NCBI RefSeq assembly: GCF_008000775.2
Contig: NZ_CP042905.2
Location: 1,650,001-1,682,000, forward strand
Direction: 5' to 3'
From: Promethearchaeum syntrophicum
Lineage (GTDB): Archaea > Asgardarchaeota > Lokiarchaeia > Sigyniarchaeales > Promethearchaeaceae
Length of the DNA stretch: 32,000 nt
Of this stretch, positions 3,099 through 28,700 are shown piece by piece (position 1 is the stretch's first letter; each line of letters opens with the position of its first letter). The notes beneath the pieces were generated by a model that did not search any database, had not been told where the DNA came from, and saw only the letters and a program-made list of their open reading frames with translations. Position numbers and translations under genes: made by a program.

Positions 3099-4175
3099 TT
3101 AAAAATGTTTTCTGCTCAAAAGATCCGGATATTTCAAAGCACCCCGTGAGTCAATAGCCTGGGCATAAGGTTCAAATTCACTTGGAATTACACAACAAGC
3201 GCTATAATATTCAATTTTAAAATTTTCTTGCTTTGCCCATTTGATCGTTTTCGCTGTCGGCATGACAATATGATTTGCCCCAGAAAGGATGGACCAGCGT
3301 TCTAAATCAAAGCTGAATTTTCCTTTAGGTCTCATACAACCCAAAGATAAAAGAGTTGAAGGAAGGAATACTTTTGAGATTAAAAAGAATTTTGCCATGC
3401 TTTCTGGAGTTAATAATTCGAAATTTTGATCCATTTCTCCATTTGTTCGTGGCGGAATCATCCCTATAAAAACTAATAATTCAGGGGGATTTTCAGATAA
3501 GACTTTGATTGCATCTAATTCCCTCGCTATTTTTCCAAATCGCGCTCCTATTAAAACATGTGGAATTACCCTTAACCCCGCTTCAAGAAGTGCATCATAA
3601 CTTTCAATATAATCTTCGATTTTAAAATCTAAGTTAAAAACATCTTGAATGACTTTAGAATCCAAATTAAGATCAAAAGATACAGTATCGATTCCGCTTT
3701 CTTTCAGAGATCTTGCCTCAGAATAAGATATAAGGCCTACATGAGAGTTTAGAAAGAATTTTTTATTCTTTCTTTTAAAATCTAAGATAATGTCTTTATA
3801 TTTCTCAATAGGCACTTTACCATAAGATGTACACCCTCCCGAAATAAGTGCTCCTACGCTATTATGGTCTATACAGTAATTTAATGCATTTTTAAATTTT
3901 TCTTCAGTTTCTGCTTGAAGCATATTTGAAAGATATTTTCTGTCACAATGTTTGCAGTTTAAATCACAGCTATTTCCAGTCACTGAAATGGAAGGGAATG
4001 ATTTTCCGGGAGTATAAAATTTCAGGGCTTTTGCTTCCTGGAGAGTTTCGAACCGGTAAGATCCGATTTCATTAAAGAATGAATCCCAATCATCGTTCTC
4101 AAATGATAATAGATATCTTGCATCTGCCCAATTGAATTTTTTAGTTTTAAATTTCTCTAAAAATTTTTTCAACAT
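3099..4175 (-). CDS. Radical SAM protein, candidate archaeal split lipoyl synthase subunit (LipS1/LipS2-type)
   Basis: 358 aa. Canonical CxxxCxxC radical-SAM cluster motif C70-DLN-C74-KH-C77, plus further Cys (GGCTSYG, LGCMRPKG, SACCVIP). It is the last gene of a same-strand trio with an LplA-family gene and a second radical-SAM gene. Confidence 0.7.
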   Translation of the reverse strand: MLKKFLEKFKTKKFNWADARYLLSFENDDWDSFFNEIGSYRFETLQEAKALKFYTPGKSFPSISVTGNSCDLNCKHCDRKYLSNMLQAETEEKFKNALNYCIDHNSVGALISGGCTSYGKVPIEKYKDIILDFKRKNKKFFLNSHVGLISYSEARSLKESGIDTVSFDLNLDSKVIQDVFNLDFKIEDYIESYDALLEAGLRVIPHVLIGARFGKIARELDAIKVLSENPPELLVFIGMIPPRTNGEMDQNFELLTPESMAKFFLISKVFLPSTLLSLGCMRPKGKFSFDLERWSILSGANHIVMPTAKTIKWAKQENFKIEYYSACCVIPSEFEPYAQAIDSRGALKYPDLLSRKHF

Positions 4176-13119: not shown

Positions 13120-14040
13120 TTAGAAATAAATCATCAATTTTTCCACCGCATCAAGTAATCCTTCTATATCTCCTTTTACCGTTTCAATGTTTGAAGAATT
13201 TTGGATATCAAACCCATAAGTGAAATAAAATCGTTTTTTATTTGAGCTAAATTGTTTCATTTCTACCACTGTAAAATCCGTTTGAAATGAAATTTCTTTC
13301 AAAGTCATGGTTTTTTTAGTAAAGGTTTGAAAAAGGCTATGGGCAACATCGCGTAATTTAATTTGCTCAATTGCAGGTTTAAAATAACTGGCTACTTCTA
13401 TTAAATCTTCAGAGAAGATAATAATAAAATCTAGCATTTGCGTAATTTGATTCTTATTGCAGAAATCATCGAAAAGAATTCCTAAATTATCATACAATGT
13501 AGAATTCCCTAACAAGGGTTTGCTAAATGCATGAATTATGGATAAAGGGTTAAAGATCGTAGTGTGATATAATGCTAATTTCAATGGTGCTGCGATTTCA
13601 ATAAATTTTTGTTTTAAAACCTCAAGCATTTTCATATTTTCCGGATCTTGCTCCATTCCAGGGTCAAATTTGTGGATTAAGATGTGAATTTTCGCATCAG
13701 GGCTGAAATCAGCAATTTTATCCCTAAAATCCTTAAAATAATTTATAGATTTTTCAAATGAACCTTGATCTTGAATATCAATTACGAATAAGGTTTGATC
13801 CACATCAGAGAATACTACTTCTGCTTTTCTGTCTAAGTATTGTTCTCGATATCTTTCTTGCCCTCCTAGATCCCAAATTGATATATCTTTTCCCAATAAT
13901 TTTAGCTTTTGTCTTTCAATACCTTTAGTTGGTTTTAATTTAGTAATTGCGCTAAATTCTTTTTGGAGACTTCGTATTAAACTTGTTTTTCCTGCATTTT
14001 GTATTCCAAATATTGGAATCTTCATTAATTCTTTTGACAT
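13120..14040 (-). CDS. Small GTPase with C-terminal ~130-aa extension (Rag/Gtr-like architecture), paralog B
   Basis: 306 aa. G1 GIQNAGKTS, G2 region PTKGIE, G3 WDLGGQ, G4 HKFD (the HKxD form is characteristic of Rag/Gtr GTPases), G5-like TTIFN. The C-terminal domain is the size of a roadblock/longin domain. The SD-like AGAGGT (14047..14052, - strand) overlaps the stop codon of the upstream paralog. Confidence 0.85.
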   Translation of the reverse strand: MSKELMKIPIFGIQNAGKTSLIRSLQKEFSAITKLKPTKGIERQKLKLLGKDISIWDLGGQERYREQYLDRKAEVVFSDVDQTLFVIDIQDQGSFEKSINYFKDFRDKIADFSPDAKIHILIHKFDPGMEQDPENMKMLEVLKQKFIEIAAPLKLALYHTTIFNPLSIIHAFSKPLLGNSTLYDNLGILFDDFCNKNQITQMLDFIIIFSEDLIEVASYFKPAIEQIKLRDVAHSLFQTFTKKTMTLKEISFQTDFTVVEMKQFSSNKKRFYFTYGFDIQNSSNIETVKGDIEGLLDAVEKLMIYF

Positions 14041-14051
14041 GTAAAAACCTC

Positions 14052-14948
14052 TTAGAAATATTTCATTATTGTTTTAACTTCTTGTAAAACATTGAAGGCT
14101 TCTGCACTTAATGGCGCCGGATCCTGGACAGCTTCAATATCATATCCATATGTGAAATAATATGGATCGCCACCCGCTTCAAATTGAATCATTCTAACTG
14201 AAATTGCGTCAGTATGTAAAGAAATATCAGATAATTCTAGTTTCTTATCATCAAATACATTAAATATTTCAAATGCCACATCACGCATTTGCTGTTGATT
14301 CACGCTTGGATCGAAATAATTTCCAATTTCCATCAAATTCTTTGAAAAAATAATAATAAATTTAGCTTCGGTCCGATTGACAAATTCGTAAAATGCAAAT
14401 TGAAAGTTGTCGTAAAGAGTAGTATTTCCAAACACTGGTTTACTAAAAGCTTGAATGACAGAGATTGGATTGAAAATTGAAGTCTTGGTTACTCTGGCAG
14501 AAAAAGGTTCTGCTAGTTCAGAAAATTTCTTGTTTATTGTTTCATAAAGTTTCATGTTATCTTCCATTTCTTCAAAACCAGGATCGAATTTATTAATTAA
14601 GATATTCATTGATGCCTTTGGTGAATATTCTGCAAGATCTTCTTTAATCTCCTGAAAATAGGTAATAGCTTCAGAGAAAGAATCTTGATCTTGAAAATCT
14701 ATTACATAAAATAATTCTTCTATACCAACAAAATAGTTTTTTGCTTTTTTCTTGTAAGTTTCACGGTATTTTGATTGCCCTCCAAAATCCCAAACTACAA
14801 TTTTTTTTGAAAAACACTCCAAGCTAGTGCGTTCAATTCCTTTCGTCGGTTTTAAATCTGCGAGAGATTTAAATTCTCGTTTAAGTGTGCGTAGTAATGA
14901 TGTTTTTCCGCCGTTAGCGATTCCTAGTATTACAATTTTTTCCGCCAT
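14052..14948 (-). CDS. Small GTPase with C-terminal ~130-aa extension (Rag/Gtr-like architecture), paralog A
   Basis: 298 aa. G1 GIANGGKTS, G3 WDFGGQ, G4 NKFD, G5-like KTSIFN. It aligns along its full length with the downstream paralog, including the C-terminal domain (both end ..FTYG[YF]DI...M[KI]YF). SD-like AGAGGT at 14955..14960 (- strand). Confidence 0.85.
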   Translation of the reverse strand: MAEKIVILGIANGGKTSLLRTLKREFKSLADLKPTKGIERTSLECFSKKIVVWDFGGQSKYRETYKKKAKNYFVGIEELFYVIDFQDQDSFSEAITYFQEIKEDLAEYSPKASMNILINKFDPGFEEMEDNMKLYETINKKFSELAEPFSARVTKTSIFNPISVIQAFSKPVFGNTTLYDNFQFAFYEFVNRTEAKFIIIFSKNLMEIGNYFDPSVNQQQMRDVAFEIFNVFDDKKLELSDISLHTDAISVRMIQFEAGGDPYYFTYGYDIEAVQDPAPLSAEAFNVLQEVKTIMKYF

Positions 14949-15734: not shown

Positions 15735-16163
15735 TTATTCGATTTTTTTTAAGACTGATTCTATTATTTGTGCGAATTGCGCTTTTGGAGCCATACCAAC
15801 TTGACGGTGCACTAATTTTTTACCTTTAATAAACAGAGTTGTTGGAATTCCTGATACTTGGAATTGTTGTGCAATTGGTTGGTGGTTATCTACATTAAGC
15901 TTTGAGAAAATGACATTTTTTCCTGCTTTTAGGTATTCTTTTTGAAGTGCTTCAAAATGTGGTCCGAAAGCTTTACACGGTCCGCACCATTGTGCCCAAA
16001 AATCTACGATAATAAGGCTATCTCCGTGGTCATTGACTAATTTATTAAAATGATCAACAGATTCAATGTTAATAACATCTTCTGGAAGTGGAACAATATT
16101 TTTGTTTATCATATCAGCCATCTTTTTTTGGCGGATTGCATCAATTTCGTTATCGTTTGACAT
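15735..16163 (-). CDS. trxA: Thioredoxin
   Basis: 142 aa. Canonical active site WAQWCGPCK and the downstream GIPT cis-Pro loop. It has an N-terminal extension of about 35 aa. Confidence 0.9.
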   Translation of the reverse strand: MSNDNEIDAIRQKKMADMINKNIVPLPEDVINIESVDHFNKLVNDHGDSLIIVDFWAQWCGPCKAFGPHFEALQKEYLKAGKNVIFSKLNVDNHQPIAQQFQVSGIPTTLFIKGKKLVHRQVGMAPKAQFAQIIESVLKKIE

Positions 16164-16208: not shown

Positions 16209-16272
16209 AAGGTTGTGCAAATTTTTTTCCTCTACATATTCTAAATTTTCGCTACTATTTAAAGGTTGTGCA
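16209..16272. repeat. Two copies of an 11-nt direct repeat AAGGTTGTGCA in the divergent thioredoxin/selenoprotein-candidate intergenic region
   Basis: Exact copies at 16209..16219 and 16262..16272, each followed by a T-run. The first copy is embedded in the palindrome TTTGCA-AGGTTG-TGCAAA (16204..16221). Confidence 0.5.
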
Positions 16273-16324
16273 TTTTTTATTACCAAATAAGAAATTTTTT
16301 TTCCTTTCATTAATTAATTAATCT

Positions 16325-16627
16325 ATGAAATTTACAAGCGAAGCATGTAAGTTTATTAAACAAGAATCTTCAACCTTCAAATATGATCCTGTAGTTATGG
16401 TATTTGAACGGGTCTTCCAGGGCTGATGTGGCCAATCCAAGGCGGTAACCGCTTCATTAGTTGACAAAAAAATGCTGGCAAACGATACAGAATTTATTAT
16501 TAAAAATGGCTCAAAATGTCTTGTGCCAATATGGATTGAAAAGAATCTCCAGTATTTAGTTGATAACACTAAAATTGATGTCGCAGGTTGGTCTACCTAT
16601 CGCAGATTAATTGTGATTCCGAATTAA
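16325..16627 (+). CDS. Candidate selenoprotein: small HesB/IscA-like protein with in-frame UGA (Sec34, motif Q-G-U-C-G)
   Basis: A single frame from the ATG at 16325 to the TAA at 16625..16627 is interrupted only by TGA at 16424..16426. Translation: MKFTSEACKFIKQESSTFKYDPVVMVFERVFQG-U-CGQSKAVTASLVDKKMLANDTEFIIKNGSKCLVPIWIEKNLQYLVDNTKIDVAGWSTYRRLIVIPN. By eye, both halves align with A-type carrier/HesB proteins: the N-terminal 'i.iT..A...i' lead-in, GUCG against GCSG, and NLQYLVDNTKIDV against sLqyLdGt.iDy. A SECIS-like hairpin follows. TGA is an ordinary stop elsewhere in the window (25285..25287, 28698..28700). Confidence 0.6.
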
Positions 16628-16698
16628 TTCCCATGAGATGAAGCAAATTTACAAACTGAAGAAATTTGCAGATCCCAAAGCCATTGGAGGGGAATTAA
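16624..16698 (+). promoter_or_regulatory. Candidate SECIS element (3'-UTR stem-loop) of the UGA-containing gene
   Basis: Perfect 8-bp inner stem GCAAATTT (16643..16650) / AAATTTGC (16662..16669) with the 11-nt A-rich loop ACAAACTGAAG. The 5' flank is ATGAA (16638..16642) and the 3' flank is AGATC (16670..16674). An outer 9-bp stem TTAATTCCC (16624..16632) / GGGAATTAA (16690..16698) encloses it. The inner hairpin begins 16 nt after the stop codon. Confidence 0.45.
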
Positions 16699-16749
16699 CC
16701 GAAAATGAATAAATATCATATATAAGAAAAAGAAATTACGTGAAATCGC

Positions 16750-17586
16750 ATGTCAGAAAGAAAAACTTTTGAAAAAGGGTTAGCACTGTATTCAAAAGGA
16801 AAATTTGAAGAAGCCTTGATACACTTTGAATCGTTAACAGATCCCTCCTTTGAAATTATGAAACATTATCACATAGGGTTAGTAAAAATTCAAATGGGGT
16901 TATTGGAAGACGGATTAAAGGAGTATAGAAAAATTCATGAAGTAAATCGGGTGAATCAAGGTGTTGAATATGATAAATTCATGTTTAGCCTATATATTAA
17001 TATGGGTTCAACACTACAGGTATTAGCGAAGAAAAAGGGAAAAGAACTATATAATGAAGCCATTTCCTGCTATAATTATGCTCTTCAAATTGAAGATGAT
17101 GATGCTCGCGTGTGGAACAATTTAGGGAATGCTTATCTTGAAATTGAAAAATATCTCGACGCTATAAAAAGTTTTCGTAAAGCAATAGAGCTAGATGATG
17201 AATATCCTGAAGCTCATTATTCGATTTCGTTAGTTTATGAATCAATGGGCAACTTTGAGAAGGCAATTGAACATTTGGAAACAGCGTTGAAATGGAAAAG
17301 CCAAAATAAAATAATTCTCAATCGATTGGCAGGTTTATGTTTTGGAACAGGAGATTTTAGTAAAGCAAAGCGTTATCTGGCGTTAATTTTAAGCAATGAT
17401 CCTAAAGATCCTGCTTCAAATAAAAATATGGCACTGATTCTATACAACATGGAACAATATGAAGAGGCATACCCATATTACCAAATTTTTCTCGATTCCG
17501 ATCCTGATTTTCAAGATCCCGAAGTTCAAGGGATTTTTGATGATTTAAAAAATAAAGTGAACAAACAAATCAATAATCTCAAATAA
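16750..17586 (+). CDS. TPR repeat protein
   Basis: 278 aa with repeated TPR consensus units (e.g. WNNLGNAYLEIEKYLDAIKSFRKAIELDDEYPEAHYSISLVYESMGNFEKAIEHLETAL). Confidence 0.8.
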   Translation: MSERKTFEKGLALYSKGKFEEALIHFESLTDPSFEIMKHYHIGLVKIQMGLLEDGLKEYRKIHEVNRVNQGVEYDKFMFSLYINMGSTLQVLAKKKGKELYNEAISCYNYALQIEDDDARVWNNLGNAYLEIEKYLDAIKSFRKAIELDDEYPEAHYSISLVYESMGNFEKAIEHLETALKWKSQNKIILNRLAGLCFGTGDFSKAKRYLALILSNDPKDPASNKNMALILYNMEQYEEAYPYYQIFLDSDPDFQDPEVQGIFDDLKNKVNKQINNLK

Positions 17587-17607
17587 TAGGAATTTTAATT
17601 TTACTTA

Positions 17608-18699
17608 ATGGAATTTGATCTTCATGATGAAACTCTGGTAGATAAAAAAATTAAAAAATATCTAAATTCGCGTAAATTTTTTCTACTAAAAAGTCGTAAA
17701 TTCTTCCGAAAACGCGGAAGTGATTTAGCTAATGAAGAAGAAAAATTCCTACGTATCCGAAAAGTGAAAGAATTAGCTTTTGGCTTAAATAATGTTGTGT
17801 ATAATCTAAATGTTGAATTTAAATTAAAAAATAAGATATTTGATAATCGGGATTACATACTTAGGATATATCCTGATAATAATAACATAAAAAAGCCATC
17901 TAACGAAGCGAAAAGAATCAAAGATATTCAAAGCTTAAGGATCCCAAAAGCAAAACTCTATTTTTTTGAAAAAAATCTTAAACATTTGGGTTATCGTTTC
18001 TTAATCTTAGAAAAATTAGAAGGAACCCCAATTTTAGAATCAATAGCAAATTTTTCAGGTACCGAAACTCAAGAATTTTTAGCGGATTTAGCTAGATATC
18101 TGGGAACACTTCACTCAATTAGATCTAAAATGTTTGATTCGTATTACCTTGATGATAAACTTACCCGAAAGATGACGTACGCCTCTTATATACTTAATGA
18201 AGTAAAATTAACCCTCAAAAACTTCTCAGATTTGAAATTAGATTCAGAACTTAGCGTTGATACCAGATATTTATATAAATGGTGTCGTGGTCATAATCCA
18301 TTGTTAAATTTAGAAGAGTATTCACTTACTCATGGAGATATACGCCCTAGCAATATTATTGTAAAAAATCATAAAATAAAAGGTTTGATTGATTGGGAAA
18401 TGAGTTGTTATTCTGACCCAGCTCAAGATATTGGATGGAGTTTATACTTCTTTACACTTTATGAAAATTTAAAGGGTTCTCGGGGTTTTTTCTTTTCAGA
18501 ATATTGGAAAGCGTGTCAAAAATATGACGTAGAAGCAAGAGTTTACTTCTATGAAGTGATTGTTGCCCTTAAATTATACATATATGCTCGATGGACTGAG
18601 ATTAATCAACCAGAGAAATATGAGAAGAATAAAGATTTTTTTTCACGAGTGAAAATTGCAACACCGAAATATATCGAAAGATTGACACACCGCGACTAA
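17608..18699 (+). CDS. Phosphotransferase of the APH/choline-kinase (eukaryotic-like kinase) fold
   Basis: 363 aa. Brenner motif LTHGDIRPSNIIV followed by GLIDWEMSCYSDPAQDIG (metal-binding D-x-E region). It lies 21 nt downstream of the TPR gene. Confidence 0.7.
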   Translation: MEFDLHDETLVDKKIKKYLNSRKFFLLKSRKFFRKRGSDLANEEEKFLRIRKVKELAFGLNNVVYNLNVEFKLKNKIFDNRDYILRIYPDNNNIKKPSNEAKRIKDIQSLRIPKAKLYFFEKNLKHLGYRFLILEKLEGTPILESIANFSGTETQEFLADLARYLGTLHSIRSKMFDSYYLDDKLTRKMTYASYILNEVKLTLKNFSDLKLDSELSVDTRYLYKWCRGHNPLLNLEEYSLTHGDIRPSNIIVKNHKIKGLIDWEMSCYSDPAQDIGWSLYFFTLYENLKGSRGFFFSEYWKACQKYDVEARVYFYEVIVALKLYIYARWTEINQPEKYEKNKDFFSRVKIATPKYIERLTHRD

Positions 18700-27794: not shown

Positions 27795-28700
27795 ATGTCC
27801 TTGGATAAATTTACTACAAAAATCAAAGAAATAAATCGTGAGACGGCATTTATATTAGTTTTCGTTTCATATTACCTTGCAATTGTATCGGCTATTGGTC
27901 TTGGATATCTTCTTAGAGATCTAAATCCAATTTTAATGATATTTCTGGTTGATATTTTAGCCACTTTGATAATTTTTATAATTAGTACAGTTTTTAGAAA
28001 CGCTAGTTTTTATGATCCTTTTTGGAGTTTTATCCCAATTGTAATTGCTCTTTATTTATTGTTTACTTCCTCTGATTTAGTTAATACTGTTCGTCAATAT
28101 ATTGTGGTGTTGATGGTCTGTCTTTGGGGTTTACGATTAACATGGAACTGGGTTCGTCAGTGGAGAGGTATAAATCATGAAGATTGGAGATATGTGAATT
28201 TCAGGAAAAAGTATGTTAAATCTTTTTGGTTTATAAATTTAACGGGTATTCAACTTATGCCGACAATTCTTGTGTTTTTTGGATGTTTGTCTCTATTTCC
28301 AGCTTTAAATTCAGGAACAAACAATTTTCAATTTCTTGATTATATTGCTTTAATTATTACATTGGGAGCAATAATTCTAGAAACATTTGCCGATTTTCAA
28401 ATGAAAAATTTCATGAAAACCAGAAAAGATCCGCAATTGATTATGGATAAGGGATTGTGGGGTAAATCGCGGCATCCGAATTATTTAGGTGAGATGTTAT
28501 TTTGGTGGGGGTTGTATTTATTCGGTGTAAGTGCCGATCCTCAATATTGGTGGGTGATATTTGGACCAATCGCGATTACAATATTATTCCTATTTATAAG
28601 TATCCCTATGATGGAAAAACGCCAAGAACACAAATCTGAATATAAAAACTATAAATTACGAGTTCGAAAATTGATTCCAAGATTTTCTTTTTCTTCTTGA
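27795..28700 (+). CDS. DUF1295 / steroid 5-alpha-reductase-like membrane protein
   Basis: 301 aa, polytopic. GLWGKSRHPNYLGEMLFWWGLYL matches the sRHPNYfGE signature shared by the DUF1295, steroid-reductase and ICMT-like membrane enzyme families. Confidence 0.75.
   Translation: MSLDKFTTKIKEINRETAFILVFVSYYLAIVSAIGLGYLLRDLNPILMIFLVDILATLIIFIISTVFRNASFYDPFWSFIPIVIALYLLFTSSDLVNTVRQYIVVLMVCLWGLRLTWNWVRQWRGINHEDWRYVNFRKKYVKSFWFINLTGIQLMPTILVFFGCLSLFPALNSGTNNFQFLDYIALIITLGAIILETFADFQMKNFMKTRKDPQLIMDKGLWGKSRHPNYLGEMLFWWGLYLFGVSADPQYWWVIFGPIAITILFLFISIPMMEKRQEHKSEYKNYKLRVRKLIPRFSFSS

Follow-up and report, generated by a model that had tools for sequence, protein, structure and literature searches.

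The 32,000-nucleotide (nt) stretch of the Promethearchaeum syntrophicum genome analysed here (contig NZ_CP042905.2, positions 1,650,001 to 1,682,000; hereafter the window, to which all coordinates refer) contains a small gene with an in-frame UGA codon (16325-16627) and, overlapping the stop codon of that gene, a nested hairpin at 16624-16698. We assign the hairpin, with a probability of about 0.9, as the selenocysteine insertion sequence (SECIS) element of the gene, which would accordingly encode a small selenoprotein. Since it fits both published descriptors, the element is placed in the class known as lokiSECIS or Asgard type I eSECIS-like (Mariotti 2016, PMC4989117; Huang 2024, PMC11227280). 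The assignment draws on direct observations of the anatomy of the hairpin, of how it is conserved and covaries, of the in-frame UGA or Cys codon that accompanies it, and of its resemblance to known lokiSECIS elements. An original prediction, made from the letters alone, had described a SECIS-like hairpin in the 3′ untranslated region (UTR) of this TGA-containing gene and had read into it a mixture of archaeal and eukaryotic hallmarks. The SECIS claim is borne out by descriptor fit, covariance models and conservation over 17 loci; the mixture is not.

Anatomy and class of the hairpin

Sequence reading and RNAfold located every feature noted for the hairpin, and the 9-bp outer stem, 8-bp inner stem, 11-nt A-rich loop and flanking bases lie exactly where they had been placed (Table 1). 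The UAA stop codon (16625-16627) is inside the 5′ arm of the lower helix. AUGAA (16638-16642) lies directly 5′ of the inner helix and AGAU (16670-16673) directly 3′ of it. A16642 and A16670 face each other as a non-Watson-Crick pair adjoining the core, followed by eight Watson-Crick pairs that complete the upper stem. The element thus reads AUGA / AGCAAAUUU / ACAAACUGAAG / AAAUUUGCA / GA, with a loop that begins ACAAA and ends AG. Folding with RNAfold, which had been suggested as a check, recovered the nested structure together with a 4-bp mini-hairpin that the earlier description lacked, situated between the core GA and the outer stem. The in-frame UGA is 214 nt upstream of the SECIS core, and the hairpin lies in the 122-nt spacer before the next gene (start at 16750).

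Table 1. Features of the predicted selenoprotein gene and its assigned SECIS element (MFE, minimum free energy).
Feature	Position	Strand	Basis
Predicted selenoprotein gene, 100 codons, MKFTSEACKF…ERVFQG-U-CGQSK…RRLIVIPN	16325-16627	+	Translation; conservation
In-frame TGA, codon 34, predicted to be read as selenocysteine	16424-16426	+	Kept in 16/17 family loci
Lower (outer) helix, 5′ arm, TTAATTCCC = UUAAUUCCC	16624-16632	+	9 bp; pairs with 16690-16698 in MFE fold
AUGA, 5′ half of SECIS core	16638-16641	+	UGA invariant in 17/17 family loci and 5/5 PrxL lokiSECIS
Upper stem, 5′ arm, 9 nt: A16642 then GCAAAUUU (= inner stem GCAAATTT, 16643-16650)	16642-16650	+	
Apical loop, 11 nt, ACAAACTGAAG = ACAAACUGAAG	16651-16661	+	A-rich 5′ end, last two bases AG
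Upper stem, 3′ arm: AAAUUUGC (= AAATTTGC, 16662-16669) then A16670	16662-16670	+	Conservation and pairing tables
GA, 3′ half of SECIS core	16671-16672	+	Invariant in 17/17 family loci and 5/5 PrxL elements
Mini-hairpin CCAA/UUGG, 4 bp, 3′ strand of internal loop	16675-16687	+	MFE folds of window and most orthologues
Lower (outer) helix, 3′ arm, GGGAATTAA = GGGAAUUAA	16690-16698	+	MFE fold; orthologue folds

The lokiSECIS elements of Mariotti 2016 (PMC4989117) have AUGA before a 9-bp stem, an 11-nt loop, and GA after the stem (AA in VhuU); the first five loop bases are adenine-rich, the last is an ultraconserved G, usually preceded by A, and the element lies right after the stop codon. The type I eSECIS-like model of Huang 2024 (PMC11227280), whose survey of more than 400 Asgard genomes covers lokiSECIS-type elements, specifies a GA_[G/A]A core, a stem of 7-15 bp with ≤2 mismatches, a loop of 8-20 nt and ΔG < −5 kcal/mol. 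The window element has the AUGA…GA core, the 9-position stem and the 11-nt loop with its A-rich start and final AG; it likewise abuts and overlaps the stop codon of a UGA-containing gene, in the 3′ UTR, and its key region (core, stem and loop) folds at −6.3 kcal/mol. It matches the lokiSECIS of 2016, surveyed in 2024, and is not the new intermediate form that had been proposed. It departs from the published examples in its host gene family, which is off the published lists, in the UUGA core of four orthologues, and in the loop-end A and U·U stem top of one group of paralogues (group 2, below).

The features shared with eukaryotic SECIS elements (Rfam RF00031, SECIS_1) are the predicted geometry of the AUGA/GA quartet (U·U, G·A, A·G, N·N), the unpaired apical adenines, the lower helix with its internal loop, and presumed action from the 3′ UTR at a distance. 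The eukaryotic AUGA_AA_GA signature, which combines quartet and apical adenines, is present by direct reading of the sequence. The eukaryote-like core with apical adenines, noted earlier, is upheld, as is its place in the Lokiarchaeota story. In contrast to eukaryotic elements, the hairpin is unmatched by the Rfam models and has a mini-hairpin on the 3′ side of its internal loop, and no SBP2 is known in Asgard archaea (Mariotti 2016, PMC4989117; Peiter 2025).

The descriptor used to search the window was strict: AUGA, then nine stem positions of which eight or more are paired, a loop of 11 nt that ends in G and has three or more A among its first five bases, and finally GA. The single match, at 16638, compares with ~0.003 expected per 32 kb on both strands, as estimated from 300 first-order Markov simulations. 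A covariance model, R1, was trained on nothing but the lokiSECIS elements of five PrxL loci in other Loki/Promethearchaeota genomes, obtained by following the PrxL selenoprotein sequence from Huang's supplement to PrxL gene fragments on Loki/Promethearchaeota contigs and from there to the DNA. The top match of R1 in the window was the present element (16625-16675, 18.9 bits, E = 0.0078, a rough value given the five-sequence training set), ahead of a runner-up at 14.1 bits. The element was also its top match in 15 of the 16 other family loci, at E-values from 2e-5 to 0.26 that are equally rough. The reciprocal model, R2, built from the elements of the host family itself (the CC/Se-like family), had the PrxL element as its top match in 5/5 PrxL loci (E ≤ 0.03 in four), and the models therefore match in both directions across the two gene families. 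Neither the strict descriptor nor R1 or R2 found a second copy behind any other gene of the 32-kb window, contrary to what had been envisaged for a terminator-like palindrome that follows many non-TGA genes. Two sites on the reverse strand, 405-459 (14.1 bits with R1) and 28217-28241 (17.8 bits with R2), were rejected as noise, the AUGA/GA core being absent or the match a partial, AT-rich one.

In the five distinct PrxL 3′ UTRs the lower stem is AAUCCC/GGGAUU and the stop codon falls within the 5′ internal loop; next come AUGA, a stem of nine positions, the first of them non-Watson-Crick, an 11-12-nt loop (A-rich…CGAG), GA, and a CA-CCC…GGG mini-hairpin. The latter (CCCU…AGGG; L017-L024) lies just 3′ of GA, and the paralogues of the host family have a mini-hairpin of yet another sequence (CCCA…UGGG; L004 about 3352-3367). 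Found with differing sequences in both paralogue groups and in PrxL, the mini-hairpin would make the element a three-way junction. The main text of Mariotti 2016 (PMC4989117) uses none of the terms 'internal loop', 'lower stem' and 'helix'.

Conservation of the element and of the in-frame UGA

Searches of genomes, metagenomes and protein collections provided 16 further loci, 17 with the window. The metagenome scan returned five loci; its back-translated pattern had [CW] at the selenocysteine (Sec) position, and TGA loci were reachable only by a second pattern. Group 1 has 11 further orthologues with 68-94% protein identity, several of them from metagenome-assembled genomes (MAGs) of Promethearchaeum sp., and group 2 consists of five paralogues with 34-38% identity (~36%). 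Three of the latter come from the same three Promethearchaeum MAGs as group 1 loci L001-L003, which therefore each encode two paralogues (L001/L004, L002/L005 and L003/L006; ~36% identity), both having TGA and their own SECIS.

In all 17 loci the element directly follows the stop codon, with UGA…GA invariant, a 9-position stem and an 11-nt loop; the first core base is A in 13 loci and U in four. The loop is AAAAACUUAAG in most orthologues, and the group 1 loops follow an AAAAA…(A/G)G pattern (12/12 loci; ACAAA…AG in the window). Upper-stem cells are paired in 95.6% of cases. Two upper-stem pairs show compensatory changes (U-A to C-G in the five paralogues, C-G to U-A in L011), and A-U becomes G-U in six sequences. 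The observed covariation score was reached by 0/500 column shuffles, and slid registers pair in 16-60% of cells; the covariation in orthologous loci that had been named as a check is thus present. When the elements of both gene families are pooled (18 distinct sequences), positions 2-8 of the stem pair in 16-18 of them and position 9 pairs in 14, even though the sequences themselves differ. Position 1, adjoining the G·A pairs, is mostly unpaired in these 18 sequences, as expected of the fourth tier in a SECIS quartet.

Group 1 has a UUCCC/GGGAA-like lower helix, and at the same place group 2 has AUCUCA/UGAGAU, which still pairs; the lower helix of the window recurs in most orthologue MFE folds. 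Applied to the whole element, MAFFT and RNAalifold recovered the upper stem only, since they failed to line up the lower-helix 3′ arms of the two paralogue groups; the lower helix was therefore judged from per-sequence folds. Over the 12 orthologues, mean column identity is 0.92 in the non-coding element, 0.85 at the end of the coding sequence (CDS) and 0.56 in the downstream spacer. The most conserved part of the element is its unpaired bases (UGA, GA and the loop adenines).

Some orthologues, as reported for lokiSECIS genes, also have UGA stop codons adjoining the core. In L001 and L002 (each about 3310-3312), L003 (about 2800-2802) and L014, three additional codons (…PTYSP) extend the CDS to a UGA stop that lies 3-5 nt upstream of the AUGA core or overlaps an AUGA-like motif. 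UGA stops at 3-5 nt would be too near the core for recoding, an argument made for other Loki genes by Mariotti 2016 (PMC4989117). In the public open reading frame (ORF) calls P0005 and P0006, both TGAs are translated as W and the frame continues to a UAG within the apical loop.

Coding sequence is conserved on either side of the in-frame TGA in the 17 loci, and G33, C35 and G36 are invariant. L012 is the lone locus with TGC (Cys) at codon 34. More distant relatives have either Cys at this position (P0134; also P0003) or a 'W' from gene callers that translate TGA as Trp, and further database entries are fragments truncated precisely at this TGA. TGA terminates 4 of the 28 long open frames in the window and is hence not globally reassigned. 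The 16/17 conservation of TGA, the Cys alternatives, the conserved flanks and the TGA stops elsewhere together identify the UGA as a conserved, position-specific Sec/Cys site. The alternation occurs next to a Cys, in a motif G-[U/C]-C-G (TGA in 16 loci, TGC in L012, Cys in P0134). L012 (CDS 117-422, element 415-503) has a core, stem and loop identical to those of the TGA-bearing L009 and L015, and its Cys form suggests a recent switch from Sec to Cys or else a strain variant.

The family is small, with 16 representative clusters at E ≤ 1e-3 in an exhaustive profile search. The window protein had no match in Pfam and none in a sequence profile search of the PDB, and AlphaFold2 run on a shallow seven-sequence alignment gave a predicted local distance difference test (pLDDT) score of 44, too low to use. 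NCBIfam NF041239, the 'CC/Se motif family (seleno)protein', matched over profile positions 4-88 of 91 (E = 1.1e-5), at 25.4 bits against a cutoff of 40; it was also matched by 8/9 diverse relatives, whose scores of 17-27 bits are likewise below that cutoff. By sequence comparison, the window protein would be a distant relative of NF041239 and not a member by the NCBI threshold. Both are small proteins of ~100 amino acids with Sec or Cys adjoining Cys in a conserved motif, and the profile match is end to end (E about 1e-5 to 1e-6 for most members). The window family differs in being archaeal, in the lokiSECIS in its 3′ UTR, in its motif G-U-C-G and in the scores below 40. In the table of a 2026 review, NF041239 is a predicted selenoprotein of Moorella (Moorella thermoacetica), bacterial only and with no archaeal flag. 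The CC/Se-like family is not among the 11 archaeal selenoprotein families of that review, nor among the seven Asgard families of Huang 2024 (PMC11227280).

Weighing the assignment

Several points count against a functional lokiSECIS. Function in this class is so far without experimental proof for any element, and one Loki SECIS tested in M. maripaludis was inactive (Peiter 2025). Because L012 retains its element with a Cys codon, the presence of the element alone is no proof of current Sec use. The whole hairpin folds with an MFE of −18.9 kcal/mol (z = −1.79) and 11/200 shuffles fold equally well, so its thermodynamic stability is by itself not exceptional, and what stands out is the combination of motifs. 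The R1 score is moderate. UUGA replaces AUGA in four orthologues (first core base at L009 1070, L012 433, L013 477 and L015 365), three of which still have the in-frame TGA; the core variants mentioned in the lokiSECIS papers are AUGA and GUGA only (Mariotti 2016, PMC4989117; Huang 2024, PMC11227280). The loops of the group 2 paralogues end in A, lacking the final G, and a U·U stands at the top of their stem. Finally, Rfam with its SECIS models gave no match, at the gathering score over the whole window or at E ≤ 10 over 16500-16800. Mariotti and Huang report that standard SECIS tools overlook Loki elements, with archaeal, bacterial and eukaryotic tools detecting nothing in Loki genes (Mariotti 2016, PMC4989117), and for this reason the Rfam miss is not evidence against the lokiSECIS reading.

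The archaeal GAA…A hallmark would imply a hybrid or intermediate SECIS that also uses the kink-turn-like loop of methanogens. Like methanogen (euryarchaeal) elements, the hairpin is located in a 3′ UTR and has a G-C/C-G clamp directly above a purine-rich internal loop; GAA (16640-16642) lies 5′ of this clamp and A (16670) 3′ of it, and RNAfold pairs GAU with AUC beneath GAA/A. A relaxed eaSECIS-like pattern allowing a 1-nt insertion matches the window element and four close orthologues only, whereas the strict pattern (GAA_A loop, lower stem 3-10 bp, upper stem 3-6 bp), which Huang 2024 (PMC11227280) keeps separate from type I, occurs at 0/17 family loci. Where the UGA codon is kept, the base after the core UGA is A, U (L001, L002) or C (L013, L014), and the position preceding GA is occupied by A, C or U. 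In M. maripaludis, both As of the methanogen GAA are essential, and changing either abolishes function (Peiter 2025). The GAU/AUC helper helix is missing in L009, L013, L015, L001, L002 and all paralogues, and an upper stem of 8-9 bp is too long for the 3-6 bp that the eaSECIS model allows. Co-occurring eaSECIS-like matches in Asgard genes have themselves been judged probably non-functional (Huang 2024, PMC11227280). Since the strict pattern is found at none of the loci, the second A varies, the methanogen SECIS tolerates the loss of neither A and a Loki SECIS does not work in M. maripaludis, we regard the likeness to GAA…A in the window as incidental and a hybrid as highly improbable.

It is very unlikely that the hairpin is an ordinary AT-rich palindrome, such as a transcript-end or stability hairpin or a regulatory hairpin for the downstream TPR gene, with no relation to UGA recoding. 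Its position in the spacer before that gene, a fold energy only modestly better than that of shuffles and its retention at the Cys-encoding locus would suit such a role; the concentration of conservation in unpaired bases, the same architecture behind the unrelated, known selenoprotein family PrxL in other genomes, the paralogues that keep element and TGA amid other neighbouring genes, and the lack of a second copy in the window with the descriptor and both covariance models all argue against it. Just as hard to sustain is a TGA that acts as a true stop, in a split gene or pseudogene, or is read as Trp, leaving the hairpin as a relic. Public gene callers did split the ORF at the TGA or translate it as W, but the frame is conserved on both sides of it, invariant residues included, down to 34-38% identity, the homologues P0003 and P0134 have Cys there and not Trp, and other window genes end in TGA. 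Furthermore, every family member tested matches a curated (seleno)protein family, the NF041239 scan of the relatives giving eight matches in nine.

Proposed mechanism, genomic setting and significance

As a lokiSECIS, the element would form in the mRNA 3′ UTR as a lower helix overlapping the stop codon, an internal loop, a 9-position upper stem and an 11-nt loop with unpaired adenines. By analogy with eukaryotic SECIS and following the argument of Mariotti, the core would adopt kink-turn geometry through a quartet of U16639·U16673, G16640·A16672, A16641·G16671 (the tandem sheared G·A) and A16642·A16670. Apical adenines and kink-turn may then recruit the Sec-specific elongation factor carrying Sec-tRNASec, either directly or via some kink-turn-binding protein; a separate protein of this kind is proposed because no SBP2 is known in Asgard archaea. 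Recoding of the codon 34 UGA would follow, with Sec inserted to yield a protein with a vicinal Sec-Cys pair (G-U-C-G), for which we infer a possible redox role. A tRNA scan of the window found no tRNA-Sec and no other tRNA.

The selenoprotein gene is oriented divergently from a thioredoxin gene (WCGPC; 15735-16163, reverse strand). Loci L001-L003 and L009 of group 1 keep the same gene order (thioredoxin, selenoprotein, TPR protein, APH-like kinase); the paralogue group has other neighbouring genes with the same element and the same TGA. Elsewhere in the window, two tandem paralogous genes on the reverse strand (13120-14040 and 14052-14948) encode GTPases of ~300 amino acids that match Gtr1/RagA and Arf profiles (eukaryote-like small GTPases). 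An Arf/Ras-like GTPase gene precedes PrxL in four of the five distinct PrxL loci (L017, L018, L020, L024), and a Sec23-like gene follows it in three (L018, L020, L024).

Window positions 16250-18086 are identical to part of Logan contig DRR199588_82 (60.9 kb). We take GCA_008000775 to be the assembly of strain MK-D1. In the data of Huang 2024 (PMC11227280) this accession is listed with Sec-containing SelD, FrhA, FrhD, HdrA and three PrxL genes, from which it follows that the organism would use Sec. Run DRR199588, from which this contig was assembled, holds gene-expression data of Ca. Prometheoarchaeum syntrophicum MK-D1 (Imachi et al. 2020), and the window therefore very probably derives from that strain.

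What is new here is modest, the type of RNA element being already known: a host gene family apparently unreported in archaea, the UUGA core variant and the conserved three-way architecture. On balance, though by a narrow measure, we favour the view that these genes constitute an unreported archaeal selenoprotein family, formed by Asgard homologues of the bacterial CC/Se-motif family with a G-U-C-G centre. It would have two SECIS-bearing paralogues per Promethearchaeum genome, one group adjoining a divergent thioredoxin gene, and is apparently encoded in MK-D1. Read backwards, the G-U-C-G motif gives the GCUG centre found in mammalian thioredoxin reductase. Less likely than the new family, the mini-hairpin shared with PrxL elements, which makes a three-way junction, could be a Loki-specific determinant for a factor that replaces SBP2.

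Given that the element type is known, current views on the evolution of the Sec system from archaea to eukaryotes stay as they are. Nevertheless, lokiSECIS in an independent gene family with two paralogue lines newly strengthens the comparative case for both stems, upper and lower, and for the unpaired bases that are conserved. The gene probably adds to the archaeal selenoproteome, having been overlooked by homology-based surveys, with public calls splitting it at the TGA or giving Trp. This locus, apparently part of the genome of the cultured Asgard archaeon MK-D1, contains a short, clearly delimited pair of gene and SECIS that would make a practical test case.

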